Shown here in pieces: positions 4,368 through 20,651 of a stretch of DNA of 64,000 nt; position 1 is the stretch's first letter; the number at the start of each line of letters is the position of its first letter. This DNA is from Candidatus Calditenuis fumarioli (GTDB lineage Archaea; Thermoproteota; Nitrososphaeria_A; Caldarchaeales; Calditenuaceae). Where the stretch lies: assembly GCA_030059665.1 (NCBI GenBank), contig JANVYR010000003.1, positions 63,716 to 127,715 of the forward strand. Direction: 5' to 3'. Under the pieces are notes generated by a model, which worked only from the letters and a program-made list of their open reading frames with translations, was not told the origin of the DNA and did not search any database. A program made the position numbers and the translations under genes.

Positions 4368-5380
4368 GCCGACCGCGCTCCGGCCATCAGGTCACCGACG
4401 ATCGCCGCGGACCTCCTCAGCCTCGAGGCCCGGATGCCGGCTATCTGCGATATCAGCTCGCAGCTCCTGCAGACCTCGCGGAAAGTGGGCGACCCGCAGA
4501 CCCCGCACCTTCCCCCTCCCTCTCCGACCTTCCTGTCCTCCTGGAGGCCCGAGATCAGGCGGCCCTCGATCGCCATCAGCGCCGCGTACAGGGAGCCGGG
4601 GAACCTCTCCTCGAACTCGGTGAGGAAGGACCTGATCAGCGCCCTCTGCGAGAGGTGGCCGTAGGGGCACTCGACCTCCTGCATCGGTATCCCCGTGTAG
4701 ACCGCATAGAGGATCACCTCCCTCTGGGGCGTGAGCCTGAACGGCGAGACCCTCGGCAGCACGCCCTCGCTCTCCCTTCTCAGGCCCAACGGCTGGTGGT
4801 TCAGGTCCCCCCTCAGGAGGTTCATCAGGTACGTCTGGACTATGTCGTCGAGCGTGTGGGCCGTAGCTATCACCGTGGCTCCGGCCTTCATCGCGCCCAG
4901 CTCTATCGCCCTCCTCCGCATGACCCCGCACACCGTGCAAGGGCCCAGCCCGAGCTCGTCGAGGTAGCCGTCCCTGACCGCCTCGTCCATCGTCAGCCCG
5001 TAAAGCTCGCTGAAGGAGACCAAGACCTGCTCGACGCCGAGCTCCTCGCAGACCCTCCTCGCGTACTCCAGGGCCTCCTCCCTGTACCCGGATATCCCCT
5101 CGTCGACCGTGACCGCTACCAGCCTCGCCCTCGGGAACCTCCGCTCTATCTTCGCGAGGACCTTCAGGAGCGCGATGCTGTCCTTTCCTCCTGAGAGGGC
5201 GACCGCGATCGTGTCGTCCTCCCTCAGCATGTCGTACCTCGTTATGGTCCGGTAGACCCTCCGCTCGAAGGTCTCGAGGAAGCAGGCCCTGCAGAGCCTC
5301 TCCCCCGAGTACCGCCTGACGTAGACGACCCCAGCCCTACCGCACCTGCTGCAGGCGTTCTCCATCCGCCGGGTTGGCAT
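4364..5380 (-). CDS. PP-loop tRNA 2-thiolation ATPase of the TtuA/NcsA (Ctu1) family
   Basis: PP-loop SGGKDS; N-terminal CSRCG...CRACF and C-terminal CGVCG...CRSC zinc fingers; cluster cysteines in GPCTVCG. The track ORF extends to 5623 but that extension overlaps aglB on the other strand. In-frame ATGs are at 5380 and 5365. Confidence 0.8.
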   Translation of the reverse strand: MPTRRMENACSRCGRAGVVYVRRYSGERLCRACFLETFERRVYRTITRYDMLREDDTIAVALSGGKDSIALLKVLAKIERRFPRARLVAVTVDEGISGYREEALEYARRVCEELGVEQVLVSFSELYGLTMDEAVRDGYLDELGLGPCTVCGVMRRRAIELGAMKAGATVIATAHTLDDIVQTYLMNLLRGDLNHQPLGLRRESEGVLPRVSPFRLTPQREVILYAVYTGIPMQEVECPYGHLSQRALIRSFLTEFEERFPGSLYAALMAIEGRLISGLQEDRKVGEGGGRCGVCGSPTFREVCRSCELISQIAGIRASRLRRSAAIVGDLMAGARSA

Positions 5381-5495
5381 CCAGCTCCTCGGTAATGAGC
5401 TTCGCTCCGCAGGACGCCTCTCCCAAAGAGCGCGGCGCTCGACCGTCCCGAGGTTCTCCTCATATATCGCCCGGGTGAGCTCGTGGGGGATCGGG

Positions 5496-7616: not shown

Positions 7617-7625
7617 GATCGGCTC

Positions 7626-8375
7626 TCAGCCGATGTAGGTCGGACCTCCCTCGCGCCTCTCGGTCTCTCCGGTCTCGGTGAAGGCCTCCTCCATCTGTTT
7701 GAGGAAGGCCTGCTGCCTGGCGATCTCCTCGTCGAGCTTGCTCGTATCGATCTGGATCTGGAGCAGCGAGGACATCACCTGGAGGAGCCTCTTCGCCGAC
7801 CTGAAGTCGGGGAGGATCCCCTCGGTGTCCGCCAGCAACAGCAGCGTCTTGATCCCTTTGGTCATGGCCCTCCGCATCAGGGACGATGTCAGCCGGTCGA
7901 CAGGCAGCGCCTCCACCGACGAAAGGACCTTAGCTCCGCTCTCGATCGCCCTCCTCAAAACCGCTGGGTCGTTGGAGGCCGCGTAGACGTCGCCGGTTCC
8001 GGTGAGCCTGCCGCTCGTGACGACCATCAGCAGCTCGACGTCATCTAATCCGATCCGCTCGATCACGCTGCGCGCAACAGACTCTCCCGCCTCGGTCGAC
8101 TCGACGATGAAGTTCCTGGTGAGGACGATCGCGTTGAGTCCGTCGGAGAGCTGGTGGAGCTCGACCACCGGGAGGCTCGAGACGCCCTCGGAGTCTATCA
8201 GGGAGACCTGGGGGAAGTGGGGCGAGAAGACCCTCAGCACCTTCTCCCCTTTCCGGGACTCGAGCAGCACCGTAGCCGATACCAGCCCAACCGCTCCCGG
8301 CGAAGGGCCCACGTCGATCAGGACCTTCCTGCCCCGCGCGATCGATCCGTGCTCCTCGATCAGCTCGAAGACCAA
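7626..8375 (-). CDS. PAC2-family (proteasome assembly chaperone-like, PbaA/PbaB type) protein
   Basis: N-terminal pattern VLIDVGPSPGAVGLVSATVLLE...VFSPHFPQVSLIDSEG is typical of archaeal PAC2 proteins. The C-terminus has a coiled segment and a flexible tail. Assigned by recall of the family pattern only. Confidence 0.65.
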   Translation of the reverse strand: MVFELIEEHGSIARGRKVLIDVGPSPGAVGLVSATVLLESRKGEKVLRVFSPHFPQVSLIDSEGVSSLPVVELHQLSDGLNAIVLTRNFIVESTEAGESVARSVIERIGLDDVELLMVVTSGRLTGTGDVYAASNDPAVLRRAIESGAKVLSSVEALPVDRLTSSLMRRAMTKGIKTLLLLADTEGILPDFRSAKRLLQVMSSLLQIQIDTSKLDEEIARQQAFLKQMEEAFTETGETERREGGPTYIG

Positions 8376-8551
8376 ACGCCCTCACCGGTTTTCATCTCCG
8401 CAGGATAATAAGATTCCATGGTCCACCTGGGGACGGCACGGGAAGAGGGAGCTGTGGTTCGGCGAGCCGCTGTCGACCGTTGGAGGGCTTTGCGAGCGAG
8501 AGGTGATTTTGCGAAAACACGAGGGGTTTGTGGCGCTGTGCCTCTTCCCGG

Positions 8552-8977
8552 CTACGGCGGGTATATCTTGATCGCGAGGACGGGGCAAGCGGACTCGCAG
8601 GCCATGCAGAAGATGCAGTCCGACTCCCTCACCGGGTCCGACTTGTCGGTCCTGTACTTCTCCCAGAGCTCCTTGTCCTTCTCCGGGTCGATCACCCTGT
8701 CCTTGCCGCTCCCGGACTGGCCGGGGTTCAGGGCCCACTCGAAGACGTTGACGGGGCAGACGTCCATGCAGGCGCCGTCGGCGACGCAGGAGTCCCAGTC
8801 AACCGCAACGACTGAGCCGTGGACCCCCAGCTTGGTCGGATACGGCTTCCCTTCCGCGTCGAGCCTCTGGACGCCCTCGCCCCAGACGTCGTGGTTGTGG
8901 TGCGTCCCGGTCTTCGGGAGCTTGCTCTTGTAGTCCGGGTCTATTGGGGCCGACTTGAAGTCGACGGGCCTGACCAT
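8552..8977 (-). CDS. zfx: Zinc-containing dicluster (7Fe-type) ferredoxin, Sulfolobus type
   Basis: Close to Sulfolobus ferredoxin. It has the N-terminal His-rich extension (THHNHD...LGVHG) and two cluster motifs, CVADGACMDVCP and CIFCMACESACP. It ends IKIYPP. Confidence 0.9.
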   Translation of the reverse strand: MVRPVDFKSAPIDPDYKSKLPKTGTHHNHDVWGEGVQRLDAEGKPYPTKLGVHGSVVAVDWDSCVADGACMDVCPVNVFEWALNPGQSGSGKDRVIDPEKDKELWEKYRTDKSDPVRESDCIFCMACESACPVLAIKIYPP

Positions 8978-9076
8978 CGCGTCTCTTTCCGAGATAACCT
9001 GAGATATAAATGAGAATCGTCGACCTGAGTTCGTTTCGACGCGCGGAATTACCGGACCGGCATCCGCTGAGGCGCG

Positions 9077-9448
9077 CTAAGTTGGACGCCTGGCTCCCGA
9101 GGGAGCTGACGGGTCGGTCGGCTCGAGCTCCCTGAAGAAGCAGGTCCTGTTGCCGGTGTGGCACGCGGGCCCCTTCGGCCTGACGAGGTAGAGCAGGGCG
9201 TCGCCGTCGCAGTCGACCAGGACCTTCACGACCTCCATCTCGTTCCCGGACTCCTCTCCCTTCCTCCAGAGCTTCCGCCTCGACCTGCTCCAGAAGTAGG
9301 CCTTTCGCTCCGCGAGCGTCCTGCGCACCGCCTCTTCGTTCGCGAAGGCCACCATCAGCACCTCACCCGAATCGTGGTCCTGGACCACCACCGTCACAAG
9401 GCCGTTCAGCTTGGAGAAGTCGAGCGAGTCCAGTCCGGCCGAGCTCAC
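9077..9448 (-). CDS. hisI: Phosphoribosyl-AMP cyclohydrolase
   Basis: VVQDHDSGEVLMVAFANEEA...FWSRSRRKLWRKGEESGN...DCDGDALL...GPACHTG. There is a 4-nt overlap with the hisF stop. Confidence 0.9.
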   Translation of the reverse strand: MSSAGLDSLDFSKLNGLVTVVVQDHDSGEVLMVAFANEEAVRRTLAERKAYFWSRSRRKLWRKGEESGNEMEVVKVLVDCDGDALLYLVRPKGPACHTGNRTCFFRELEPTDPSAPSGARRPT

Positions 9449-10212
9449 AGCCTCACCTCCAGCCCCCTCGAGGCCAGGTACTCCTTGACCTGTCTGACGG
9501 AGAAGCGGCCGAAGTGGAAGACCGAGGCCGCGAGGACCGCGTCAGCCCCGCCGTCAACGATCGCCCTGTAGAAGTCCTCGAGGGAACCAGCTCCACCGCT
9601 GGCGATCACGGGGATGCCGACGGAGTCCGAGATCCTCCTGAGGAGCTCGACGTCGTACCCCGCCTGTCGACCGTCCATGTCTATCGAGGTGACCAGCAGC
9701 TCGCCGGCGCCCAGCTCCTCGGCCCGCCTCGCCCACTCCTCCGCGGTGTACCTCGTCGGCCTCGTCCCCGAGTGGGTGTAGACCCTGTACGCGACGCCCT
9801 CGCCCTGAGCCTCCCTCTTGGCGTCTATGGCGACGACCACGCACTGGTCTCCGTACCTCCTCGCGATGGACCTCACGAGGTCAGGCCTCTCGACAGCCAT
9901 CGTGTTCACCGAGACCTTATCGGCGCCGTTCCTGAGGAGGGCCTCCGCGTCCTCGAGGGTCCTGATCCCACCACCCACCGTGAAGGGGATGTCCAGCTCC
10001 GACGCGACTCGCCTGACCACCTCCACCATGGTCCTCCTGCCCTCGAGCGTCGCGGATATGTCGAGGAAGACCAGCTCGTCAGCTCCTTCCTCGGCATACC
10101 TCCTGCCCAGCTCCACCGGGTCACCCGCGTCCCTCAGGTCCCTGAAGGAGATGCCCTTCACGACCCTGCCGTTCTCGACGTCCAGGCACGGTATCACCCT
10201 CTTCGCCACCAT
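9445..10212 (-). CDS. hisF: Imidazole glycerol phosphate synthase, cyclase subunit
   Basis: KRVIPCLDV...GADELVFLDI...TVGGGIR...ASGGAG...ASVFHF. The ATG at 10212 gives the canonical N-terminus; the track start at 10251 adds 13 aa. Confidence 0.93.
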   Translation of the reverse strand: MVAKRVIPCLDVENGRVVKGISFRDLRDAGDPVELGRRYAEEGADELVFLDISATLEGRRTMVEVVRRVASELDIPFTVGGGIRTLEDAEALLRNGADKVSVNTMAVERPDLVRSIARRYGDQCVVVAIDAKREAQGEGVAYRVYTHSGTRPTRYTAEEWARRAEELGAGELLVTSIDMDGRQAGYDVELLRRISDSVGIPVIASGGAGSLEDFYRAIVDGGADAVLAASVFHFGRFSVRQVKEYLASRGLEVRL

Positions 10213-10307
10213 CCGGCAGACCGATGAGGGGCGTGCATATCTCCCTTCCATTGCCGCGCGATGAAACGAGGGTTATTGACCCGGTACTGCGTACGTGCCA
10301 CGGGCTG

Positions 10308-11264
10308 ATGGAGAGGGGCCTGGTGGAGCTCGAGGCGACGGTCGAGAGGCTGAGGGAGGAGATAGACCGGCACATCCGCCGGAGGCTAAGCGAGAGGCCC
10401 GACAGCAGGATCGTCAGCTCGATCCTCGAGGGAGGCAAGAGGCTCAGGCCGGTCTTCCTGATGCTGGTCTTCGAGGCGCTGGGCGGCAAGGAGAGGGAGA
10501 CGGCGCTGGACGTGGCATACGCGCTGGAGCTGGCCCACAACGCCTCCCTCGTCCACGACGACGTGATAGACATGGACCTTTTCAGGAGGGGGAGGCCGGC
10601 ACTGTGGCGCAGGATCGGGATAGGCAGGGCGGTCATCGAGGGCCACAGGATCATCAACGCCGCCTTCTCAACGGCCCTGGAGAAGGGCGTGGAGATAGCC
10701 CGGATCTTCCTGGAGGCCTGGGACAAGGCATCGATGGGCGTCCTGGACGAGATCGTCTCCACCAGGCCGCCTTCCGAGATGTTCTATCTCCGGCTGATAG
10801 AGAACAAGACCGGCAGTTTGTTCGCCGCAGCGGCTGAGTCGGCCGCGGTGTGCGCGGACGCGCCACCGGAGCTGAGGGCCGCATTGAAGCGCTACGGCCT
10901 ACTGGTTGGGACCATCTACCAGCTCGCCGACGACGTCGTCGACCTCGTCCACAGGAGGTCCGTACCTGTGAGCCTGAGCCTCCTCATGAGGCAGCTCGAG
11001 GACGCCTTCGCCAAGGCGGTGATCGCGCTCAGAACCGGCTCCCTCCGGGAGGCTCTCAGGTTCCTGAGGGTTCCGAGGAACGACCTCAACTTCTTCACCT
11101 CGCTGATGGAGAGGAAGCTGAGGGAGCTGGACGCGTTGGTCGAGGAGCTGCCGATCGCACCCGAAGGGAAGGAGAAGCTGAGGCTCTTCCCGAGGTACTG
11201 CGTCAGGGAGATGTTGAGGGAGGGCAGGGTGAGGGCCGATGAGGTGCAGCTCCTGCGGCTGTGA
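10308..11264 (+). CDS. Polyprenyl (geranylgeranyl-type) diphosphate synthase
   Basis: First DDxxD in LVHDDVIDMD and second in YQLADDVVD. The ATG at 10308 avoids the overlap with hisF that the track start 10224 creates. Confidence 0.8.
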   Translation: MERGLVELEATVERLREEIDRHIRRRLSERPDSRIVSSILEGGKRLRPVFLMLVFEALGGKERETALDVAYALELAHNASLVHDDVIDMDLFRRGRPALWRRIGIGRAVIEGHRIINAAFSTALEKGVEIARIFLEAWDKASMGVLDEIVSTRPPSEMFYLRLIENKTGSLFAAAAESAAVCADAPPELRAALKRYGLLVGTIYQLADDVVDLVHRRSVPVSLSLLMRQLEDAFAKAVIALRTGSLREALRFLRVPRNDLNFFTSLMERKLRELDALVEELPIAPEGKEKLRLFPRYCVREMLREGRVRADEVQLLRL

Positions 11265-11374
11265 GGTCCGGCGCCCGAACGTGCTAGGCGGGAAGATCTT
11301 ATGTGACGATTGCTACGCTCGCCTCTCGGCGAAGGAGGACGGTCCGGTCTGCGCCCACTGAAAAGGGGTTCCGC

Positions 11375-12955
11375 ATGACGACGGTCATCGACCTGCTGGC
11401 CGCGCTCGGCGCCTCCTGGGCCAGGATAGGCGCTGCGCTGCTCCTCTCGATGGCCGCAGCGATCCTGATAGGCACCTCTGCGGCCGTCAACAGGAGGCTC
11501 GAGGCGGTGATAATACCTGCGCTGGACGTGCTCCAGAGCGTTCCGATCCTCGGATTCTTCCCGCTCGCGATAGCGCTGCTCGTCACGGTCTCCCCGGTCA
11601 TAGGGCCGGAGCTCGCGGCGCTCTTCCTGATCTTCACCTGCACCTTCTGGAACTTCGCCTTCTCGGTCTACGAGGCGGTCCGGAACGTGCCCGTCGAGAT
11701 CCGGGAGGCGCTCAGGCTCTGGGGCGTGCCGCTTCTCGACAGGTTCAGACACGTCTACCTCCCCGTCGCGATACCGAGGCTCGCCTCCAACCTGCAGCCC
11801 TCCACCGCCAACGCCTGGTTCTTCCTTACGGCCAGCGAGGTGATGTCTATCGGCGAGAAGGAGTACCGCGTCTTCGGGGTCGGCTCCCTCACCGCTGACC
11901 TGATCGGTAAAGGGGACTGGTCGTTGACGTTGCTCGTGCTGGCCATGACGCTGACCTCGATAGGTATCGTCCAGTACGCGGTTTACGTCCCACTGGCTGA
12001 CTGGGCCAGCCGCTTCGTGACCGAGCCGGGGGCTGCTACGAGGCCGAGGATCTTCGTCGGTCTCACCGCGATAGGGAGGGGTTTCAGGACCTTCGGGCAA
12101 GGGATCGCCACGATCTCGAGGGTCAGGCAACTGAGGGTTCCGCTGCAGGTCCACTTCGTGCCCCAGCTGGAGAGGTACAGGACCGCCTTCCTCTCCCTCA
12201 CGGCGCTCCTGGTGATAGGCACTGCCTTCAGCACGTTGCTGATCCGCTACTCGGGCGACCTGATAGGGCAGGCGCTCCTTCTGGCAAGGCGCTTCTCCAC
12301 CGCAGACTGGTATCTGATCGGAACGTCCCTAGGCCTCTCCACCGTCAGGGTGGCCGCGGTGCTCCTCATCTCCCTGCTCTGGTCCGTGCCGCTCGCGTAC
12401 CTCCTATCGGTCGACCAGTCGAAGAGGAGGAGGGCACTGCCGGTGCTCCAGGTCCTCGTGTCGGTCCCAGCTCCCCTGCTGTATCCCGTCATAGCGCCGG
12501 CCTTCGCATCGCTCGGAGCTTTCGGGACGGAGATCGGGGCTGTGGTTATGATGCTGATGGGCTCGCAGTACTACGTGTTCTACGGGACGCTACAGGGCTT
12601 CATGGGCGTCGACCCCTCTTACCGGGAGCTGGTCAGGCTCAGCGGCCTCGGCCTCTGGAAGTCGATGCGCCTCGTGTACCTGCCCTTGGCGATGCCATCG
12701 ATCGTGACCGGATTGATCACCGCAGCCGGTGGGGCCTGGAACGCGACCGTGGTGGCCGAGAGGTTGAAGCTCGGGGACGCCGTCTATGAGACTGAGCTTC
12801 CCGGACTCGGCAAGGCGATCTCGGAGGCGGCCTCGGCCGGTGACGTCCACGGGCTCCTGATGCTGGTGATCGTGATGACCGGTTTCATCGTCCTCCTGAA
12901 CAGGACCCTCTGGGCCCAGGCCTACTCGAGGAGCATAGAGGCCGTCTCAGGTTGA
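11375..12955 (+). CDS. ABC transporter permease with two fused BPD-type permease domains (NitT/TauT-like)
   Basis: Two repeated modules each carry the LQSVPILGFFP / LQVLVSVPAPLLYP type loop, with about 12 TM segments. There is no adjacent ATPase or binding protein. The ATG at 11375 is preferred over the track start 11303. Confidence 0.75.
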   Translation: MTTVIDLLAALGASWARIGAALLLSMAAAILIGTSAAVNRRLEAVIIPALDVLQSVPILGFFPLAIALLVTVSPVIGPELAALFLIFTCTFWNFAFSVYEAVRNVPVEIREALRLWGVPLLDRFRHVYLPVAIPRLASNLQPSTANAWFFLTASEVMSIGEKEYRVFGVGSLTADLIGKGDWSLTLLVLAMTLTSIGIVQYAVYVPLADWASRFVTEPGAATRPRIFVGLTAIGRGFRTFGQGIATISRVRQLRVPLQVHFVPQLERYRTAFLSLTALLVIGTAFSTLLIRYSGDLIGQALLLARRFSTADWYLIGTSLGLSTVRVAAVLLISLLWSVPLAYLLSVDQSKRRRALPVLQVLVSVPAPLLYPVIAPAFASLGAFGTEIGAVVMMLMGSQYYVFYGTLQGFMGVDPSYRELVRLSGLGLWKSMRLVYLPLAMPSIVTGLITAAGGAWNATVVAERLKLGDAVYETELPGLGKAISEAASAGDVHGLLMLVIVMTGFIVLLNRTLWAQAYSRSIEAVSG

Positions 12956-13588
12956 CTCGACGACGAACCTCCCCCACATTCCGAGACTGACGTGCCCGGG
13001 AACGTTGCAGACGTAGTAGTAGGTCCCCTCCTTATCGGCGACGAAGTATACGGTCACCGAGGAGCCAGGCGGAATCGGGTTCCTCGGCGTTCCGGCCGCT
13101 GCACCTCTGAAGACAGGCTCCGCGTTGGGGTCCTCCCTCAGCTCCCGCACAACCGTCAGGACGTGAACCGCTTGGCCGACGTTCACCACCGTCAGCTTGA
13201 CCAGGGATCCGACCTTCACCCTCAGCTCAGGACCAGGTGAGAGTATCGAGTCGGGCCGCAGGCCGAAGCCGAAGTCGCCGGCGTAGACCGTCAGCTCGAC
13301 GTCCGGGCTCCTCGAGGGCGGTGTCGGTTGCTGTGGCTGCTGGGGCACCGCACCACCTCCACTCATCCACTGCATGCACGGGCACCAGCCCATCATGTAC
13401 CCCATCATCCCTCCCATCATTGATCCCATCATGTTCCACCTTCCCATCGTTCCTGCGGGAGGGACAGGAGAGGTGTCACGGGACCACCACATAGGTCCCC
13501 ACCAGAACGCGTAAGCACCGATCACCAGCACCGCCGCTGCCAGCACCGACACCGCGACCACCAGCACGAGGACGGTCCTGTCGTCCAA
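12947..13588 (-). CDS. Membrane-anchored type-1 copper (cupredoxin) protein with a Met-rich CPC linker
   Basis: N-terminal TM helix, a linker NMMGSMMGGMMGYMMGWCPCMQWM, and a Pro/Gln spacer. The C-terminal cupredoxin has ligand pattern H(VL)...YVCNVPGHVSLGM (C-x4-H-x4-M). Confidence 0.8.
   Translation of the reverse strand: MDDRTVLVLVVAVSVLAAAVLVIGAYAFWWGPMWWSRDTSPVPPAGTMGRWNMMGSMMGGMMGYMMGWCPCMQWMSGGGAVPQQPQQPTPPSRSPDVELTVYAGDFGFGLRPDSILSPGPELRVKVGSLVKLTVVNVGQAVHVLTVVRELREDPNAEPVFRGAAAGTPRNPIPPGSSVTVYFVADKEGTYYYVCNVPGHVSLGMWGRFVVEST
13389..13436 (-). repeat. Four tandem 12-nt units (plus strand cccatcatNNNN) encoding (MMGx)4
   Basis: cccatcat recurs at 13389, 13401, 13413 and 13425 with an exact 12-nt period. 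Confidence 0.9.
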
Positions 13589-13638
13589 CCTGGCTCACCT
13601 CACCGTTTAGTGGTCGGACCTGATAGAAATGGGGTGCG

Positions 13639-13667
13639 CGAAACGGTGTGAAACGTCGATCGTTTCG
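13639..13667. promoter_or_regulatory. Candidate operator: three phased CGAAACG/CGTTTCG-type sites between the cupredoxin and thioredoxin-fold genes
   Basis: CGAAACG at 13639-13645, (T)GAAACG at 13650-13655 and the inverted CGTTTCG at 13661-13667, with about 11-nt spacing. They lie in the 130-bp divergent intergenic region. Confidence 0.3.
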
Positions 13668-13718
13668 GACGTTGCTTTCACCTGGAAGGCGTAAATCCAC
13701 GCAGTCGCAGCTCATTCT

Positions 13719-14003
13719 GTGGTCCACCGGCTCGAGCTCTTCGTCGGAGGATGTCCCATCTGCGAGGAGGTGCTCAAGGAGGTTACGGTGGGGAAGTGCG
13801 CCGGCTGCGCGCTCGAGGTGTATGACCTCACGAGGCAGTACGCTGAGGTTGCAGGCAAGTTGAGGGAGTACCGGATCAGGTGCGTACCGACGCTGGTCAT
13901 CGACGGCCGCATCAGGATCGAAGGGAAAACCGCAGTTCGCGCTCATCTGCGACGACGAAATGTACCGGTTCCTCGAGGAGAACTACCGCATGCGCTGATC
14001 TGA
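13719..14003 (+). CDS. Small thioredoxin-fold protein (Thioredoxin_3 / glutaredoxin-like), CPIC motif; 3' end possibly frameshifted
   Basis: ELFVGGCPICEE...VPTLVIDGRIRIEGK matches the small redox-active disulfide protein pattern. The tail after GK reads better in the +1 frame (see findings). GTG start. Confidence 0.6.
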   Translation: MVHRLELFVGGCPICEEVLKEVTVGKCAGCALEVYDLTRQYAEVAGKLREYRIRCVPTLVIDGRIRIEGKTAVRAHLRRRNVPVPRGELPHALI

Positions 14004-14007
14004 CAAG

Positions 14008-14460
14008 TCACTGTCCCGATGCTCTCTGCCTCAGCCTGACGATTTTCGTGCGGCCGTAGGGCTGGGTGGTCACGACGCCCCTCCTCTCCAGCTCCCTCAC
14101 GAGCCTGTGGGCCCTGACCCTCGATATCCCGAGCTCCCTCGCCAGGTCCCGCTGCGTCACCTCTCCCCTCTCCGAGAGGAGCGCCACTACCTTCCTCTCC
14201 TCGTCGAGGAGGGCCGACGGCACCTCTCCCCTCCCGCGCGTCCCAGGGGCGTTCACCAGCACAGCCAGTGTCACCGCGACCCCGACGAGGCCCACGACGA
14301 CGAGGAAGCCGAACGCTGGTCCGAACGGCATCATCGCTGCGCACATCGGGCACATCCTAGCCATCTCGGGTGAGGCGTGAAACGAGATCATCACCGCGAA
14401 CGGCAGCACCAGCACGACCAGAGAGGCGGTCAGCGCCGCGATAAGGAAGGCCTTCTCCAC
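14008..14460 (-). CDS. Membrane-tethered winged-helix (MarR/TrmB-like) transcription regulator: two TM helices plus a C-terminal wHTH
   Basis: TM1 (about residues 4-26), loop HASPEMARMCPMCAAMMPFGP, TM2 (about residues 47-70). This is followed by EERKVVALLSERGEVTQRDLARELGISRVRAHRLVRELERRGVV, a typical wHTH. Confidence 0.7.
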   Translation of the reverse strand: MEKAFLIAALTASLVVLVLPFAVMISFHASPEMARMCPMCAAMMPFGPAFGFLVVVGLVGVAVTLAVLVNAPGTRGRGEVPSALLDEERKVVALLSERGEVTQRDLARELGISRVRAHRLVRELERRGVVTTQPYGRTKIVRLRQRASGQ

Positions 14461-14514
14461 ACCCCTCCGGTGAGGAACCGAGCATATAGGCGTGAAGGCG
14501 ACGAGGTTGACGAC

Positions 14515-14531
14515 CGTTTCGGAGCGTTTCG
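14515..14531. promoter_or_regulatory. Candidate operator: two direct CGTTTCG repeats between the regulator and the zinc-finger membrane protein gene
   Basis: CGTTTCG at 14515-14521 and 14525-14531, 10 nt apart. They sit between TATA-like catatag (14483-14489) and ggataattac (14535-14544). Confidence 0.3.
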
Positions 14532-14572
14532 CGAAGGATAATTACGCCGGTGCGGTCCTGGCGGTGCTGCGG

Positions 14573-15163
14573 ATGAGGTACAGGTGCAGGAGCTGCGGAG
14601 CCACCTTCGCCTCGAGGGAGGCCCTCAGGGCCCACATCAGGTCCAAGCACCCGGTTTCCTACTACGCTCCGAGGATCGGGTACGTCTCGGCCTTGGTCCT
14701 GGTCGCTCTGGTGGGCGGGTATCTGGTCCTCGCGAGGGAGCCGCCGGCACAGGCCGTGGGTGCGCCGATATCCGGCATAGAGTGCTGGTCGATGGAGCAG
14801 GTCGCGTACCACGTCCACGCCAAACTCGAGGTCTACGTCAGGGGAGAGAGGAGGACGGTGCCGGCCAACATCGGCATCATCCCGAACAGGTGCATGTACT
14901 GGCTCCACACCCATGACGCAACAGGCTGGATCCACGTCGAAGCTCCTAGGGAGATAAGGCCGACGCTGGGCCAGTTCTTCGACATATGGGGCCAGCCCCT
15001 GAGCCGCGAGAGGGTTCTCGACGTCGATCTCGTCTCCTCCGGTCTCGGGATGCGGGTTTACGTCGACGGCAAACCCTACGATGGCGACCCGAGGGAGATC
15101 GAGCTGATCGACATGAGGGAGATCGTTATAGACGTGGGTCCGCCCTTCGCGATCTCCGGTTAA
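14573..15163 (+). CDS. Membrane protein: N-terminal classical C2H2 zinc finger, one TM helix, His-rich extracytoplasmic domain of unknown function
   Basis: CRSCGATFASREALRAHIRSKH fits C-x2-C-x12-H-x4-H. The TM segment is YVSALVLVALVGGYLVLA. The outer domain has HVHAKL...WLHTHDATGWIHVE. The ATG at 14573 is preferred over the track start 14492. Confidence 0.6.
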   Translation: MRYRCRSCGATFASREALRAHIRSKHPVSYYAPRIGYVSALVLVALVGGYLVLAREPPAQAVGAPISGIECWSMEQVAYHVHAKLEVYVRGERRTVPANIGIIPNRCMYWLHTHDATGWIHVEAPREIRPTLGQFFDIWGQPLSRERVLDVDLVSSGLGMRVYVDGKPYDGDPREIELIDMREIVIDVGPPFAISG

Positions 15164-15402
15164 GCTGAGGCCCTCTCGAGGACCCTTTCGATGGCTGAGA
15201 CCCAGCGGAGGAACGCGTTGACGGCCGCCCTCATCGCCACGGTGTCGTCCGCCTCGAAGTCCAGCACCAGCTCGTCTCCGTCGAGCGAGACCTGAACCCT
15301 CGACCTCTGGCCGGGGAGAACGCCGGACTCCGGGAGGAGAGCGCGGTAGATCGCATCAGAACTACCTGATCTGATCCGAACCCTCAGCGCGCAGGGATGC
15401 AT
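15160..15402 (-). CDS. pcc1: KEOPS complex subunit Pcc1-like
   Basis: 80-aa protein with the Pcc1/CTAG pattern (SLDGDELVLDFEADDTVAMRAAVNAFLRWVS). It lies directly downstream of eL43, a frequent archaeal arrangement. Confidence 0.7.
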   Translation of the reverse strand: MHPCALRVRIRSGSSDAIYRALLPESGVLPGQRSRVQVSLDGDELVLDFEADDTVAMRAAVNAFLRWVSAIERVLERASA

Positions 15403-15406
15403 TCCC

Positions 15407-15619
15407 TCAGACCGTTGGGGCCCAGGCTCCGCCCGCGAACTTGTGCCCGCACTTCCTGCACTGCCATATGCCGACCGCGACCCTCCTCACCGCTACCCTT
15501 CCGCACCTGGAGCACTGGTAGGTGGCGTACTGCGTCTTCTCGAGCTCCTCGACCCTCTTCCTCAGCCTAGCGCCGTACCTCGCGCCGAACCTCTTCGTCG
15601 TTCCCTCGCCGGCCCTCAT
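15407..15619 (-). CDS. rpl37ae: Ribosomal protein eL43 (L37Ae)
   Basis: GTTKRFGARYG...YQCSRCG...WQCRKCGHKFAGGAW, a C4 zinc ribbon. In-frame ATGs are at 15619 and 15637. A T-rich box at 15643-15650 favours 15619. The track start 15721 is unlikely. Confidence 0.88.
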   Translation of the reverse strand: MRAGEGTTKRFGARYGARLRKRVEELEKTQYATYQCSRCGRVAVRRVAVGIWQCRKCGHKFAGGAWAPTV

Positions 15620-15994
15620 CGCCCCATCGGCTCGCATGCCGGTTGAAAAACCTGTGACCTGCCACAGGAGCGGGTTCCCGCATGAGGTGCTATATTTTGG
15701 AGTTTTGTCTTCGATGGCCATCTTCGTGGACGTCGTAGCCCTGGTCTCGAGCCGCTTCGATCGCAGCAGAGAGGCGGTGAGGTTAAGGCGTTAGCCGTCC
15801 TGGAGTGGACGTTTTGCGGGGCCGCATTTTATGTTGCTAAACTTCTTCACGCTGTATTACCCCACCATCGTCTCGAAGGCGAAGTGCTCGGAGCTGAGGC
15901 AAAGGAGCGCCAACTGGAGAAGAGGATATCGAGCTGTAAGGAATTATGCCGCAAGGCGTCATTGAAGCCCATGCTCCACCACGTGATTGTTGTC

Positions 15995-16079
15995 TGCGGG
16001 GGGTGGGATTCGAACCCACGAACCCCTACGGGACAGGGTCCTAAGCCCTGCGCCTTTGACCTGGCTCGGCCACCCCCGC
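15995..16079 (-). tRNA. tRNA-Leu (anticodon UAG), class II with a long variable arm, no encoded CCA
   Basis: The reverse complement reads GCGGGGG-UG-GCCGAGCCAGGUCAAAGGCG-CAGGG-CUUAGGA-CCCUG-UCCCGUAGGGGUUC-GUGGGUUCGAAUCCCAC-CCCCCGC-A. It has a 7-bp acceptor stem, a T-loop UUCGAAU and the anticodon loop CU-UAG-GA. Confidence 0.93.
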
Positions 16080-16104
16080 CCTCCTGTATCAAGCCTCGTC
16101 CTCA

Positions 16105-16112
16105 CTAAAAAT
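16105..16112 (-). promoter_or_regulatory. TATA-like box for tRNA-Leu
   Basis: The minus strand reads ATTTTTAG, 26-33 nt upstream of the tRNA 5' end at 16079. Confidence 0.4.
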
Positions 16113-16148
16113 CCTCGACGCCCGAGAGGGCCTCCATCAAGGGGTGCT

Positions 16149-16208
16149 GGGCTCAGACCCCACTCCTGAGATCACCGGTTCAGTCGCGACGTTCAGTCAT
16201 CATCGCCC
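16149..16208 (-). ncRNA. Candidate C/D-box sRNA (2'-O-methylation guide)
   Basis: Minus strand 16208->16149 reads GGGC-G-AUGAUGA (C, 16203-16197) - 13 nt CUGAACGUCGCGA - CUGA (D', 16183-16180) - ACCGG - UGAUCU (C', 16174-16169) - 12 nt CAGGAGUGGGGU - CUGA (D, 16156-16153) - GCCC. The terminal stem GGGC/GCCC and 3-nt bulge fit a k-turn. Confidence 0.55.
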
Positions 16209-16230
16209 GCATCAGAACGTCTCCCGGGCT

Positions 16231-16240
16231 CGAAATAAGA
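16231..16240 (-). promoter_or_regulatory. TATA-like box upstream of the C/D-box sRNA candidate
   Basis: The minus strand reads TCTTATTTCG, about 24-30 nt upstream of the predicted sRNA 5' end (16208-16212). Confidence 0.35.
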
Positions 16241-16510
16241 GTAGGTCAAAGGGCCTTATGAGTTGTGAAACGGGTTTGGGTCTAGGTCCTGGGATGATGG
16301 GAACGATCGGAGAAGCAAACCAAGAACGTCTCGATTGGAAGCTGAAGGAGAAGGCCCCTTGAGCTGTACAGAAGACTCGAGAAGATTTCAGAGCTACCGA
16401 GGTCACAGGGAACGACAGTAGACTTCCACCAGAAGAGGCCAGCGATGGATTTCACCCATGGATTCCGACGGTAGCTCAGATCGAAAACGGAGAACTGAGA
16501 GCCCAGGTGG

Positions 16511-17893
16511 CTACGCACCGAGCAGCGCGTTGCCGATCAGCCATAGCAGCGCTACAGCTGAGGTGGGCAGAACCCCTATCAGTATCCCCGGCTTGATCCA
16601 CTCCTTGAAGGTAATGTGGACGAGCTTCTGGCGCTCTGCCATTCCAACGGCCACGATGTTCGCGGTGCTCCCTATCAGCGTCAGGTTACCCATGTAGGTC
16701 CCTGCCTTGAGCATCGTCCACCAGAGGTACCTCGTGTCGAGGCCTGCAGCGCCCATCTCCTGCACTACAGGTACCCAGAAGGCAACGGCCAGGACGTTGT
16801 CCATGAAGGCCGACATGAGGCCCGTCACGACGTAGAAAGAGGGGAGCGTAACCACCGGATTGGAGCCGAAGACGCCACCTAAGGCGTCGGCGATGAACTT
16901 CGTCACGCCGGTGTAATGCAGGGTTCCCACCGAGGCGAAGAAGAGCATGAAGAACGTGAGCGTCCACCAGTCAACCCTCTTCTCCACCAGCTCCCTCGCC
17001 CTCGGTCCCTCGATGAGCAGGACGACGCCCGCCCCTATCATGGCCACGCCGATCAGCATCGTGTTCTTCTTCAATCCCAACAGCGCCTCAATCTGCGCGT
17101 GAAGGACGAGTCCCGCTATGACGCCTAGGAAGACGAGCGCGGCTGTCCTGTCGATCCTCGAACGCTCCTCACCGTCTCGCGCGGCCTCCTCTACGACCTC
17201 CCTTTTCATCCCATCGTTCAGCTTGGCGAAGAAGTCCCTGAAGTACGCCGAGGACGTGAGGACCACCGCAACCGTGGCCAGCGCAGCGGCGGGCGCCGAG
17301 TACCTCAGGAAGTCCGAGAAGCCGTAGCCCGAGTTCAGCGCGATCAGGACGCCGATGGGGTTGCCGACGACGGTGGCGCTGCTTCCGATGTTTGTGGCGA
17401 AGACGGTCATCAGCAGCAACGGCGTCAGGGGGAGCTGGAACCTGGCCGCGAGCGAGATGCCCGTGGACATCATGAAGAGTATCGAGGTGACCTCATCCAC
17501 CAGCGCGGCGGATAATGCAGCCATGCCGAGGAAGACGAACATCAGCCTGAGCGCGCTGCCCCTTCCTATTCCCAGCACCCTGTCCACCACCACCTCGAAG
17601 AACCTCCGCTCCTCGAGGAACCCTATCACGATCATCATGCAGATCAGGAAGACGATCACGTCCAGCGAGGAGAACTCGATGAAGGTCGGAACGTCGATGA
17701 GCCTTGCGGCCATCAGCATCGAGACGCCGACGAGCGCGAAGGCGAGCCTGAAGCGCCAGAAGAGGAGTGTGCCGCCGATGATGCCGGTGAAGACGCCGAC
17801 CGCTACCGACTGCTGCGGGCTCAGCCCGGCCGCCAGCGATAACGCCAGGCTCCCGACCGGTATGATTGGGTAAGCGAGGGCTTTGCGGTCCAC
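16511..17893 (-). CDS. ArsB/NhaD-superfamily anion permease (YbiR / citrate-transporter-like)
   Basis: 460 aa and about 12 TM segments, with a central hydrophilic loop (KREVVEEAARDGEERSRIDR) between two homologous halves. Assigned by overall pattern only. Confidence 0.65.
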   Translation of the reverse strand: MDRKALAYPIIPVGSLALSLAAGLSPQQSVAVGVFTGIIGGTLLFWRFRLAFALVGVSMLMAARLIDVPTFIEFSSLDVIVFLICMMIVIGFLEERRFFEVVVDRVLGIGRGSALRLMFVFLGMAALSAALVDEVTSILFMMSTGISLAARFQLPLTPLLLMTVFATNIGSSATVVGNPIGVLIALNSGYGFSDFLRYSAPAAALATVAVVLTSSAYFRDFFAKLNDGMKREVVEEAARDGEERSRIDRTAALVFLGVIAGLVLHAQIEALLGLKKNTMLIGVAMIGAGVVLLIEGPRARELVEKRVDWWTLTFFMLFFASVGTLHYTGVTKFIADALGGVFGSNPVVTLPSFYVVTGLMSAFMDNVLAVAFWVPVVQEMGAAGLDTRYLWWTMLKAGTYMGNLTLIGSTANIVAVGMAERQKLVHITFKEWIKPGILIGVLPTSAVALLWLIGNALLGA

Positions 17894-17959
17894 ACTCTAT
17901 CACCCGCTTTGCTCCTGCAACAGGTCCGGGAGTAAAAAACGTTGTATCGCTGTGCGAGG

Positions 17960-20536
17960 TCACGTGAAGAACTGCTCGAGGCTCCCGACACCGATCACTG
18001 CGTCGAAGTCGAGGTCGAGGCTGTCGAGGACCTGCTCGAATGTCGAGCGCATGTACTCGATGTACTTGTCGACGTCGATCCTGTCCTTGCTCACCCTGAC
18101 CTTGGGATGGAGCGGCGCTACGCCGATCTTGTCGTTGGTCCTGACGTACCTGATGATGTCGCCCGAGGTCACGTGGACCCCGTGCTGCTTCAGGATGTTG
18201 GCGGCCTTTACGTGCGGAGGGGTCGTCTCGGTGTAGCTCTCGGGCTGCTTGGAGAGCATCACGGCGAACGCCAGCTCCTCCAGCTCGAACTCCCTGTTCT
18301 TCAGCCTCCTGTACCAGCCCCTGATCAGCTCGGAGATGTGCTTTTTCGCCCGCTCGAGGTCCTCTGGGCTCCTGACCTTCTTCAGCTCCTCCAGCATCGA
18401 GTTGAACGCCTCCCTGATGAACTCGGGGATGTGGCGCTTCTTTCCCGTGAGGCCCTTGACGTCCACCACACCCTTTGTGGTCAGGCCGAGGTAGTTCTTC
18501 TTCCGGGAGGAGAAGACGACGTAGACGTACTCCTTGTCCGGCTCCAGGTCGAGACCAAGGTCGGTGGCGGCCCATCTGATCAGCTCGGAGAGGACTTTCT
18601 CGTCTGCGCCCTTGAGGAAGAGCGAGTCGGTGTCGCCGTATACGACGGTCGCTCCCAGCTCCCGGACCTTCTCGATCGCCGCCTTGAAGACGTAGCGCCC
18701 TATGGCAGCCGTGCTCTCGGCGAGGGGAGGGCAGTAAAGCGGGAACTCCTCGAAGCCGAAGACCCCGTAGGACGCGTTCAGGAAGACCTTGATGGCCTTC
18801 TGGACCACGTCGTACCAGGCCCTGAGGTCCTCCGGGAGGGACCGGTCTGAGCTCCTCGGTTTGTACAGACCGACCCTGACGGCCCTCAGCGCTCCTATCA
18901 CGGCGCTCTGGAGGCCCCTGTTCCTCTTGCAGACCCAGTGGGTCGTCTCGGGGACCACGTTGCTCTTGCACTCCTCATGCGGGCACCTTATGGTCTCGTA
19001 GCTGAGGTTCCACCTGTCCAGGGCCGACGGGTACAGCGAGGCGAAGTCCACGACCTTAACGTCGAAGTGGATGCCCGGTATGGGGTCGACCACGATGGCT
19101 CCGCGGTACTTCTTCCCCTCTATCACGGCCTTCGTGACGGTCCCGCCCTTCACCTCGACGATCTCCTGCTGCGTCGGGATCAGCCACCCCCTCTTCCTGT
19201 GCTCGAAGTAGAGCAGGTTCTTGATCCAGCCGGAGACCCCGTGACGGCACAGGTCCTCGAGCGGAAGCCTGCTGATCCGTGAGAGCACGATCATTAACCT
19301 CAGCACAAGCCTGTTGTTGAAGGTCAGTAGCTCGTAGGTGAGCTCTGCGTCGTTCATGCAGTACTCCGCAAGCCTCTCCAGCGAGAGCGAACCTATCGGC
19401 TCCTCGATCTGGACCTTGCCCCTGTTCAGCACGGCCTGCGCGATGCCGTCAAGCGTGAACTCCCTGTACCTGTTGTCGAAGGCGTAAATCTGGATGGACT
19501 TGTTCGAGAAGAACGAGTAGAGGTCGACGTGGGCTGCCCTGACGAAGGTTGCCCCCTCCCTCCCCAAAACTATCGGGTTCTGGTCGTCAGGTATGCCGAG
19601 CCTCTTCGCGCGGTTGTGCAGGTACGGCAGGTCGAAGTCGTCACCGTTGAAGGTGGCCACGACCGCATACTCTCCGTCGAGGACCGCGAAGACCTCCTCG
19701 AGCATCTCCTTCTCGGAGCTGTGGACGATCATCCTGTAGCCGTCCTTCTCCCGCTCGGTCCGCTCGGTCTGGCCGTTGTTGGCGAGGAGGTGGATGTCCC
19801 TCCGTCCGTCGGAGCCCCTGACGGCTATCGCCACCACCTTGTCCTCCGCCTTGCTCGGGCTCGGGACCCTCGTGGCAACCGGTGCGGCCACCTCGATGTC
19901 GATCGCGCAGACCGGCAGGTCGGGCTGCTCCGCCTCCAGCAGCTTGATCCACTCGGCCACCAGCTCGACGTCCTCTCGCCTGACGCCCTTCAGGCCCGAA
20001 GCTATCCTGATCGCCTCCTCATCGCTCAGGACCCTGAGAACCAATCTGCCGTCATCGCCCTTGACGTATGGAGACCCGGTTATCAGACCCGAGTCGATCA
20101 GGTAGTTCAGGTGGTACGGTATGTCTGCCTCCCAGCACCGGAACCTCTCCCGGACCGAGTTGGCCCTTCCACCGATCGTCAGGGGGTCCTTCGCGATCAC
20201 CTTGGTCACCTCAACCTCCCTCTGCCTCAGCGCGTCGAACTTCCTCACCCGCTCGACGCCCGCTATTCGGTCGGCGATGTCCCTCAGCTGGTACCTCACC
20301 GTCTCCTCGTCGAGGTCCGTGAAGCAGTAGGGAAGGTGGCCCGTCTCGTCGTAGAGGAGCTCGACCTTCCTGGTCCTGGTGTTGAAGAGCTTCAGGTAGG
20401 CCTTCCCGCTTTTGCCGTCGTAACCGGCCGAGAGCAGGTAGTAGACCTCGGATTCGGCGCTGCCCTCCGAACGCCCCGAGGAGGCCTGCCGCTGGTTCCC
20501 CTCAACCCCGAGCGCCTGGAAGAGCGTCAGCTGCAT
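17960..20536 (-). CDS. polB: Family B DNA polymerase
   Basis: Exonuclease motif CAIDIEV, polymerase motif A VVDFASLYPS, motif C VVYGDTDSLF. 858 aa, with no intein-sized insertion. Confidence 0.93.
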   Translation of the reverse strand: MQLTLFQALGVEGNQRQASSGRSEGSAESEVYYLLSAGYDGKSGKAYLKLFNTRTRKVELLYDETGHLPYCFTDLDEETVRYQLRDIADRIAGVERVRKFDALRQREVEVTKVIAKDPLTIGGRANSVRERFRCWEADIPYHLNYLIDSGLITGSPYVKGDDGRLVLRVLSDEEAIRIASGLKGVRREDVELVAEWIKLLEAEQPDLPVCAIDIEVAAPVATRVPSPSKAEDKVVAIAVRGSDGRRDIHLLANNGQTERTEREKDGYRMIVHSSEKEMLEEVFAVLDGEYAVVATFNGDDFDLPYLHNRAKRLGIPDDQNPIVLGREGATFVRAAHVDLYSFFSNKSIQIYAFDNRYREFTLDGIAQAVLNRGKVQIEEPIGSLSLERLAEYCMNDAELTYELLTFNNRLVLRLMIVLSRISRLPLEDLCRHGVSGWIKNLLYFEHRKRGWLIPTQQEIVEVKGGTVTKAVIEGKKYRGAIVVDPIPGIHFDVKVVDFASLYPSALDRWNLSYETIRCPHEECKSNVVPETTHWVCKRNRGLQSAVIGALRAVRVGLYKPRSSDRSLPEDLRAWYDVVQKAIKVFLNASYGVFGFEEFPLYCPPLAESTAAIGRYVFKAAIEKVRELGATVVYGDTDSLFLKGADEKVLSELIRWAATDLGLDLEPDKEYVYVVFSSRKKNYLGLTTKGVVDVKGLTGKKRHIPEFIREAFNSMLEELKKVRSPEDLERAKKHISELIRGWYRRLKNREFELEELAFAVMLSKQPESYTETTPPHVKAANILKQHGVHVTSGDIIRYVRTNDKIGVAPLHPKVRVSKDRIDVDKYIEYMRSTFEQVLDSLDLDFDAVIGVGSLEQFFT

Positions 20537-20621
20537 CCGACGATACGGTGCCCTCAGCCTGTAAAAGGTTATCGGGGCGATGCGGGCGTGGACGTACCGT
20601 AGCGGTACGCCCCTGCATGGA

Positions 20622-20631
20622 TTTTATAAAA
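20622..20631 (+). promoter_or_regulatory. TATA box for the downstream glycosyltransferase-like gene
   Basis: TTTTATAAAA lies 21-30 nt upstream of ATG 20652, which is preceded by gggagggaagg. Confidence 0.45.
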
Positions 20632-20651
20632 CGCGGTGGTGGGAGGGAAGG

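Follow-up and report, generated by a model that had tools for sequence, protein, structure and literature searches.

A locus of four genes, here called A to D, occupies positions 12947-15163 of a 64,000-nucleotide stretch of contig JANVYR010000003.1 from Candidatus Calditenuis fumarioli; the whole stretch is referred to as the window. The reading favored here, to which a probability of about 0.5 is given, is that a Caldarchaeales (Aigarchaeota-type) archaeon has here a cluster for handling copper at the envelope that is specific to its lineage, in which C would act as a Cu(I)-sensing transmembrane regulator. All four open reading frames reported in a first-pass annotation of the window are present, and its count of three membrane-anchored proteins holds, with transmembrane (TM) helices in A, C and D and a cytoplasmic B. 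The genes and the two divergent control regions between them are as follows.

12947..13588, minus strand: gene A, 213 residues; N-terminal TM anchor, Met-rich linker, Pro/Gln spacer and cupredoxin domain
13589..13718: A/B control region, divergent; GAAACG hexamers and putative TATA-like boxes
13719..14003, plus strand: gene B, 94 residues; mini-thioredoxin with CPIC and CAGC, frameshifted
14008..14460, minus strand: gene C, 150 residues; two TM helices, outer loop and C-terminal winged helix
14461..14572: C/D control region, divergent; tandem 10-mers and putative TATA-like boxes
14573..15163, plus strand: gene D, 196 residues; C2H2 finger, one TM helix and outer domain

The same annotation ascribed CxxC/CPxC-type motifs to all four proteins. 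This is accurate for the CPIC of B and the CPMC of C, whereas A has CPC (C-x-C) and the CxxC of D is that of its zinc finger.

C is predicted to be a two-pass transmembrane transcription regulator without a folded sensor domain. Two hydrophobic helices, TM1 (residues ~4-27) and TM2 (~49-69), enclose an outer loop of residues 28-48, and a flexible linker (70-85) connects TM2 to a winged helix (86-143). The winged helix scores above the Pfam cut-offs for the archaeal winged-helix family DUF7343 (36.2 bits against 27.6, residues 84-143) and for MarR_2 (35.7 against 27, residues 93-134), HTH_24 also lies above its cut-off, and relatives of C at loci L102 and L121 match DUF7343 as well. The hydrophobic helices and these Pfam matches bear out the earlier description of a two-TM protein with a Cys/Met loop and a cytoplasmic winged helix-turn-helix domain. 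C thus combines in one polypeptide what defines the transmembrane transcription regulators (TTRs), namely a DNA-binding domain and at least one TM segment (PMC10269533). Foldseek superposes the winged helix of C on CadC, MarR and SmtB with a root-mean-square deviation (RMSD) of 1-2 Å over ~60 residues (~60-66 on MarR proteins). A full-text literature search for DUF7343 gave no paper mentioning it.

The outer loop of C reads HASPEMARMCPMCAAMMPFGP, with the pattern H-x4-M-x-R-M-C-P-M-C-A-A-M-M. Across 14 homologues of 59-93% identity, 13 of the 21 loop positions are invariant, and the mean conservation is 0.92 in the loop and 0.91 in the winged helix, compared with 0.73-0.77 in the TM helices. 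The loop is therefore conserved as much as the DNA-binding domain, which argues against its being dispensable.

C matches none of the archaeal and bacterial copper-regulator families tested, and the earlier judgment that the locus is not a described archaeal copper system is upheld. Assignment to the MarR family, whose members are soluble proteins of ~140-150 residues with flanking dimerization helices, was rejected, since MarR_2 covers only residues 93-134 and the N-terminal half of C consists of two TM helices. An ArsR/SmtB metalloregulator was rejected on the NCBIfam NF033788 score (23.4 bits against 55), and the similarity to CadC and SmtB is confined to the winged helix. A CopR/CopT protein was rejected because C is membrane-embedded, no TRASH or YHS domain is found among the best 25 of its 31 Pfam matches, and no P-type ATPase occurs among the genes tested in 3243-22910; among the same best 25 of 31 matches, the only one outside the winged-helix region (83-146) is a sub-threshold match over the TM half. 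A ToxR/CadC-type regulator was likewise rejected, since C has no Trans_reg_C match, a C-terminal DNA-binding domain, two TM helices and no folded outer domain.

Among 1.84 billion representative proteins, only 30 fell below 1e-10 in a profile search; the full-length ones consist of two TM helices and a winged helix in 150-165 residues. A scan of species-representative genomes with the C alignment gave only two false matches, both helix-turn-helix segments of Rhodobacteraceae. In the group closest to C, found in other Caldarchaeales (Ca. Benthortus, Pelearchaeum and Caldarchaeum), the loop reads WQH-x3-M-x2-MMG and thus carries His and several Met residues and no Cys; the first Cys of C aligns with one of the Met positions. 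More distant groups have CxC or C-x4-C-x-HE loops. The flanks are readable at seven loci of the Met-loop relatives, and at six of these the regulator adjoins copper proteins or Met-rich envelope proteins. The neighbors in Caldarchaeum are NosL fused to a TlpA-like redoxin, a two-domain multicopper oxidase, cupredoxins, a DUF411 protein with CPCC and a Met-rich CPC/PepSY-like protein; those in Benthortus and Pelearchaeum are a Met-rich CxxC/PepSY-like protein and a Met-loop membrane protein with a borderline DUF6114 match. The recognizable partners of the Met-loop relatives are all copper proteins. Gene order around these regulators differs between the genera, and the association of the C family with copper proteins is therefore more than plain synteny. 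The segments L106 1082-1630, 1962-2690 and 2767-3339 and L107 5487-7766 belong to the compact copper cluster that surrounds the Met-loop regulator in Caldarchaeum genomes.

Two further homologies connect these clusters with the locus described here. The Met-rich/CPC N-terminal module of A, its tether, shares homology with the N-terminal part of the PepSY-like proteins that accompany the Met-loop regulators (38% identity over 55 residues with the L106 protein, E 1e-5). In relatives that lack C at this locus, D is followed by a small four-TM protein with a Met-rich loop and a weak or borderline DUF6114 match (L007 5658-6029, 123 residues; L014 3764-4132), and this protein is homologous, with 41% identity, to a gene of the Benthortus and Pelearchaeum clusters (L102 6265-6672). 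The same parts, namely a regulator, a Met-rich/Cys tether protein, a Met-loop membrane protein and a cupredoxin, thus occur in varied orders across genera, which makes the evidence for a functional link stronger than synteny alone would. A tblastn match of the DUF6114-like protein at window positions 57-284 was rejected as spurious, being antisense to a CDC48-type AAA gene.

The CxxC in the extracytoplasmic loop of C also raises the possibility that C is a thiol/disulfide redox sensor, in which the CPMC pair would cycle between dithiol and disulfide and thereby determine how active C is, and B would take part in the same response. The acquisition of B, a CxxC thioredoxin-fold protein, beside C in the closest relatives fits this alternative, as do more distant family members in Aenigmarchaeota, with CxC loops, that stand beside Cys-bearing membrane proteins and a secreted CPHC protein. 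However, the closest relatives of C have His and Met in place of loop Cys, and their neighbors are copper proteins. His and Met have no redox chemistry and are classic Cu(I) ligands. B, moreover, is cytoplasmic, absent from most genomes that carry C and frameshifted here, and the Aenigmarchaeota neighbors have no above-threshold Pfam assignment. A redox sensor is thus rather improbable.

At the Aenigmarchaeota loci themselves (L119-L122), the CxC-loop relatives adjoin a Cys-bearing membrane protein with a sub-threshold SfLAP match and a secreted CPHC protein, and L121 also carries a P-type cation ATPase. These loci hint that loop chemistry tracks the neighboring genes, and the redox link stays a lead.

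A is predicted to be a membrane-anchored type-1 blue copper protein with a rusticyanin-like site. A single hydrophobic helix at the N-terminus is followed by the linker MMGSMMGGMMGYMMGWCPCMQWM, which contains MMGx repeats and WCPCMQWM, then by a Pro/Gln-rich spacer and a C-terminal domain that matches Pfam Cu-oxidase_3 (30 bits, cut-off 21) and also Cu-oxidase_2. The best solved relative of this domain is rusticyanin (1rcy, E 2.5e-9). The hydrophobic helix, the Cu-oxidase_3 match and the match to 1rcy confirm the earlier description of a TM-anchored cupredoxin with an MMGx/CPC linker. H142, C194, H199 and M204 of A, the predicted type-1 copper ligands, are invariant in 11 homologues and align with those of rusticyanin and nitrite reductase, giving the His...Cys-x(n)-His-x(m)-Met set of a type-1 (blue) copper site within a cupredoxin fold. 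The family is narrow, with 14 close homologues. Equivalence to rusticyanin, CopI or sulfocyanin was rejected, since all three NCBIfam scores lie far below the equivalog cut-offs (rusticyanin TIGR03095, 36.6 against 146.7 bits; CopI NF051440, 19.1 against 280; sulfocyanin TIGR03094, 15.0 against 168.4).

D is probably an extracytoplasmic metal-binding protein with a link to copper, as judged from its conserved residues and gene neighbors. Its start is ATG 14573, in agreement with the first-pass annotation, since orthologues begin with MR[YH]RC, and the start of the mechanical open reading frame, GTG 14492, was rejected on the same alignment. The orthologue alignment likewise sustains the first-pass view of D as a C2H2 finger, one TM helix and a His-rich outer domain. 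The database gene model P0017 (218 residues) and the GTG start appear over-extended, covering the promoter and the repeat (14492-14572). The finger, C-x2-C-x12-H-x4-H, is formed by C5, C8, H21 and H26; it scores just under the cut-off of Pfam zf-C2H2_4 (26.0 against 27), and its model superposes on the DNA-binding finger of SALL3 with an RMSD of 0.7 Å and a probability of 0.99, as expected of a C2H2 finger. The TM helix spans residues ~34-56. In the outer domain (window 14750-15163), C71, H80, H82, C107, H112, H114, H121 and E123 are invariant across 47 diverse homologues. The AlphaFold model of D has a mean predicted local distance difference test (pLDDT) score of 94.4. The outer domain has no Pfam match and no relative in the PDB: Foldseek gave nothing below E 0.001 and only a vague beta-grasp/transcobalamin-like similarity, and searches with phmmer and a profile were empty.

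At least 587 genomes in the species-representative collection encode homologues of the outer domain, and the hosts include Chloroflexota, Eremiobacterota, Actinomycetota, Burkholderiales, Gemmatimonadota and Nitrososphaeraceae. Tandem double copies are found in P0062 and P0122, and the relative P0026 is annotated 'hypothetical protein'. Among the aligned homologues, the zinc-finger N-terminus is confined to the closest archaeal ones, including those of Nitrososphaerota. Among 77 loci of D homologues, the largest clusters of neighbors reflect lineage synteny in Eremiobacterota (a WYL regulator and histidine-utilization genes). PCu(A)C lies directly downstream of the D homologue in four loci of Actinomycetota and Melainabacteria, SCO1 and a TlpA-like redoxin stand beside it in four to five Eremiobacterota loci, cupredoxins in three to four loci, and an OmpR/histidine kinase pair with DUF305 in one lineage. 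Copper-trafficking genes are therefore recurrent near D homologues, yet they are found in a minority of the 77 loci. The D orthologue of L014 (~4200-4800) has two in-frame stops and is either a pseudogene or the product of an assembly error.

D itself might be the membrane-tethered regulator, its outer His-rich domain sensing metal and its single C2H2 finger contacting DNA. The finger-TM-domain architecture is conserved across Nitrososphaerota, including ammonia oxidizers, D is present in every genome with the repeat described below, and the superposition on the DNA-binding SALL3 finger would agree with such a role. However, the single finger of ~27 residues runs straight into the TM helix, leaving little room for it to contact DNA or read a 16-bp site, P0025 has lost the second Cys of the finger, some D orthologues occur without the repeat, and bacterial homologues have no finger. 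This role of D is accordingly given hardly any weight.

Comparison of related loci shows how the cluster is built. The relatives L001-L004, in which C is 64-71% identical, have D, C and A and no B, and only the closest relatives, L012 and L013 (C 80-82% identical), have B as well, B being absent from L001, L004 and L007. At the Caldarchaeales locus L007 (D 71% identical), A and D are directly divergent with neither C nor B, and the arrangement of L014 is similar. Orthologues of D at ~60% identity stand alone among unrelated genes. The C family is very narrow (16 matches), and C at this locus is confined to one subclade. The self-contained, co-conserved module of four genes envisaged at first does not survive this comparison. 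The cluster is instead layered: A, D and the repeat are the older core, C was added in one subclade, and B followed in the closest relatives.

B appears to be a cytoplasmic mini-thioredoxin, a recent addition that is now damaged. It matches Pfam Thioredoxin_3 (27.2 bits, cut-off 24.8) and carries CPIC and a second motif, CAGC; the match to TIGR00412 (MTH895/ArsE) is sub-threshold (22.1 bits against 62), and the region past residue 70 is out of frame. Matches in the PDB are weak (the archaeal thioredoxins 1fo5 and 1ilo). Alignment with L012 and L013 places a 1-nt insertion near 13920-13931, which puts the last 24 codons out of frame. The orthologues in these two relatives end ...IEGKPQFALICD[DE]E.YRFLEENY.MR where the window reads ...IEGKTAVRAHLRRRNV..., and the conserved C-terminus PQFALICD.E.YRFLEENY.MR is lost; deletion of one base near 13920-13931 restores it, with a stop at 13996-13998. 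Four independent metagenome-assembled genomes, with 99.2-99.5% identity across the module, share exactly this insertion, and the frameshift is therefore real in the species and no assembly artefact. The small thioredoxin-fold protein with CPIC that had been proposed is thus recognizable, except that its C-terminus is out of frame.

A repeat is the conserved element that links A and D. Phased CGTTTCG repeats had been noticed in both intergenic regions; the heptamer CGTTTCG on its own shows no enrichment in the window (10 seen, 7 expected), but the 64 kb contain exactly two copies of the 10-bp-phased doublet CGTTTC-N4-CGTTTC, one per intergenic region (13640-13655 and 14515-14530), and the doublet is conserved in relatives. 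Only 0.16 occurrences are expected, and none of 100 shuffles reached two. The elements of the two regions are listed below; the TATA-like boxes and the Shine-Dalgarno-like sequence were placed by eye and are putative.

13640-13645 and 13650-13655: GAAACG hexamers, reading CGTTTC-N4-CGTTTC toward A
13661-13666: inverted CGTTTC, A/B region
13670-13675: degenerate copy CGTTGC, A/B region
13622-13629, minus strand: TATA-like box of A, TTTCTATC
13691-13698: TATA-like box of B
before A: Shine-Dalgarno-like GGTGAGGTGA
14512-14531: tandem 10-mers GACCGTTTCG/GAGCGTTTCG, C/D region, with the doublet at 14515-14530 and the consensus GASCGTTTCG
14537-14544: TATA-like GATAATTA of D
~14484-14490, minus strand: TATA-like box of C, CTATATG

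Upstream of A, GTTTC-N5-GTTTC is invariant in seven lineages at 8-10 bp from the TATA-like box, the rest of the intergenic DNA having a mean column identity of 56%, and the doublet is the most conserved element of the A promoters. In front of both A and D the doublet lies just upstream of the putative transcription factor B recognition element and TATA box, where activators would typically bind in archaea. On the D side, seven lineages share an invariant proximal CGTTTC, and the distal copy, perfect in four lineages of the five that carry C, is degenerate in L004, which carries C, and in L007 and L014, which do not carry it at the locus. Where B is present, the A/B region contains two inverted doublets, and in the window the copy nearest B has decayed. 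Loci of more distant D orthologues (~60% identity) have no repeat motif. A promoter motif of Nitrososphaera viennensis under copper limitation, TTCSGSMTTTGWACYANT (PMC7785015), was compared and is different from the GTTTC doublet.

These observations bear on whether the genes form a functional unit at all. A could be a respiratory electron carrier, D an unrelated envelope protein and C a regulator of itself or of distant genes, their adjacency being local gene order. All relatives keep the housekeeping flanks in synteny, rusticyanin, to which A is most similar, is an electron carrier, and the D orthologues at ~60% identity stand alone and without the repeat. On the other hand, A and D share a phased repeat that is found nowhere else in 64 kb and is kept while the surrounding intergenic DNA diverges, C is inserted exactly between A and D, and the families of the regulator, the Met-rich/CPC tether protein, the DUF6114-like protein and the cupredoxin recur together in other genera and in other orders. 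Mere adjacency is thus an unlikely explanation of the locus.

Whether C is the protein that binds the repeat is a separate matter. In L007, L008 and L014, all without C at the locus, the doublet in front of A is conserved, as in part is the one in front of D; the repeat therefore predates C there, C is not needed to explain the site, and another factor may bind it. Direct binding of the GTTTC doublets by C is accordingly doubtful. Somewhat easier to entertain, though still short of even odds, is that the doublets are bound by an unlinked factor common to the clade, C being a later add-on under that regulon or an indirect modulator. The A-side doublet is intact in the three genomes just named, and L014 has a further doublet, GAAACG-N4-GAAACG (4182-4197), before the gene of the DUF6114-like protein. 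Winged helices of the MarR/TrmB type usually bind palindromes, and head-to-tail 10-bp repeats would be unusual for them. However, the genomes without C at the locus are incomplete metagenome-assembled genomes that may encode a Met-loop orthologue elsewhere, as other Caldarchaeales do. Moreover, the D-side doublet is perfect in most of the lineages with C, L004 being the exception, and degenerate in genomes without C at the locus, and the hexamers of the A/B region form the palindrome GAAACG-N5-CGTTTC, which suits a dimer.

Several observations weigh against the copper-sensing cluster favored here. The doublet is kept in genomes that have no C at the locus and is absent from the loci of the Met-loop relatives of C. 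No CopA-type exporter, P-type ATPase or chaperone is present among the genes tested in window positions 3243-22910. The neighbor analysis of the 77 D-homologue loci gave no universal partner, and B is frameshifted in this species. The predicted model of C is of moderate confidence (pLDDT 74), the CPC of A is replaced by SWSC in the homologue P0144, and A could be just a respiratory electron carrier. With these points taken into account, the first-pass suggestion that soft-metal (Cu(I)-type) chemistry is combined with a membrane-tethered winged helix remains the best reading and is independently strengthened by the constraint on the loop and the copper-protein neighbors of the C relatives; the part left unsupported is a response arm, as no exporter or other obvious response effector lies nearby.

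These observations lead to a plausible mechanism for which we infer the metal ligand, the mode of signaling, the direction of regulation and the role of C as doublet binder. The outer loop of ~20 residues would be the whole sensor. At the outer face of the membrane, a dimer of C may take up Cu(I) or a comparable soft metal, with His28, Met residues and the CPMC pair providing the imidazole, thioether and thiolate ligands. Metal binding would repack the TM helices and re-orient the cytoplasmic winged helices on promoter DNA, and C could thereby tune both divergent promoter regions, C/D and A/B, perhaps by way of the GTTTC doublets. The Met-rich/CPC tether of A could capture Cu(I), and A may oxidize or sequester it as CopI does or may need copper as a cofactor, while D would handle metal in the same extracytoplasmic compartment. 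It is possible, as a more tentative extension, that C is the first member to be recognized of an unstudied archaeal family of 'micro-loop' transmembrane regulators (two TM helices and DUF7343) in which the loop is the entire sensor and its ligands suit the regulon, copper proteins going with His/Met or Cys/Met loops and thiol-redox proteins possibly with CxC loops, and that the outer domain of D is a new extracytoplasmic metal-binding domain linked to copper trafficking.

The surroundings of the cluster are archaeal, the region being flanked by genes for ribosomal protein L37ae and KEOPS Pcc1; the G+C content of the window is ~63%, and the D protein has its closest named relatives in entries annotated as Caldarchaeales, Thaumarchaeota or Nitrososphaerota. 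The housekeeping flanks (L37ae, Pcc1, an ABC permease, a polyprenyl synthase and His genes) are syntenic across all relatives, and the adjacency of A to D is therefore partly inherited gene order. The ABC permease (11303-12955, plus strand, 550 residues) has two fused BPD_transp_1 domains of the NtrB/SsuC-like kind and is convergent with A, overlapping its 3' end by 9 nt; it adjoins A in every relative. Its immediate neighbors are a polyprenyl synthetase gene upstream and A downstream, with no ATPase or binding-protein gene among them. An Rfam scan of 12500-16500 found no match in either intergenic region, only tRNA-Leu and a sub-threshold C/D-box match. The latter, to the C/D-box small RNA sR1 (27.3 bits against a gathering score of 45), lies beside the tRNA-Leu gene (16151-16207 and 15995-16079, both on the minus strand).

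If the proposal holds, C would connect Cu(I) at the envelope directly to DNA, a kind of sensor that is, to our knowledge, undescribed in archaea. The archaeal copper regulators encountered in this comparison are only of the soluble, cytoplasm-sensing CopR/CopT type. Envelope copper sensing would matter most in Nitrososphaerota, which rely strongly on copper proteins for their energy metabolism. A protein of 150 residues that joins a metal-sensing loop of 20 residues to direct DNA binding would be a minimal and tractable signaling device and a possible biosensor scaffold. The outer domain of D represents a widespread, uncharacterized His-rich envelope domain of soil and hot-spring bacteria and archaea, and the conserved cis-element provides concrete targets for footprinting.

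The archaeal regulator ArnR controls the archaellum and has an N-terminal helix-turn-helix domain. Judged by their described architecture (PMC6396743), C differs from ArnR and ArnR1 in domain order and in its lack of a folded sensor domain. C nevertheless shares with the TTRs (PMC10269533), including ArnR and ArnR1 of Sulfolobus acidocaldarius (PMC6396743) and the bacterial ToxR, CadC and TcpP, the one-component layout of TM and DNA-binding domain and sensing from the membrane. TTRs number about four per archaeal genome, and 17% of them have two TM segments (Demey et al. 2023, PMC10269533). ToxR and CadC carry an OmpR-type domain at the N-terminus, a single TM helix and a periplasmic domain, whereas in C two TM helices are followed by a DUF7343/MarR-like winged helix at the C-terminus, and the putative sensor is a loop of ~20 residues.

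A resembles rusticyanin of Acidithiobacillus ferrooxidans (PDB 1rcy, 1a3z) in its His/Cys/His/Met ligand pattern and the C-terminal motif YYYVC-x-PGH-x4-M, and differs from it in the added TM anchor and Met-rich tether, the organism and context, and a TIGR03095 score under the cut-off. With CopI, a bacterial copper-tolerance cupredoxin with His/Met-rich regions (PMC13308877), A shares a cupredoxin copper site and an extra extracytoplasmic Met-rich segment, and the NCBIfam CopI model gives a weak match at the C-terminus of A. Unlike CopI, A has a TM anchor and carries its Met-rich segment as a CPC-containing tether at the N-terminus; its domain is nearest to rusticyanin, and its CopI score is 19 bits against 280.

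The logic proposed for C matches that of the bacterial two-component sensors CusS and CopS, which detect Cu(I)/Ag(I) outside the cytoplasm through Met/His ligands, envelope copper proteins then being regulated (general knowledge; reviewed in PMC7558416). C, in contrast, has no kinase, response regulator or periplasmic sensor domain, and the signal would pass from the loop to the DNA-binding domain of the same polypeptide. With the archaeal CopR/CopT regulators, such as CopR of Pyrococcus furiosus (PMC7830388), C shares a helix-turn-helix domain and a position at a divergent promoter beside the genes it would control; CopR is soluble, senses cytoplasmic copper via a C-terminal TRASH domain and controls copA. 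In view of these differences, C is probably an undescribed type of archaeal envelope copper sensor.

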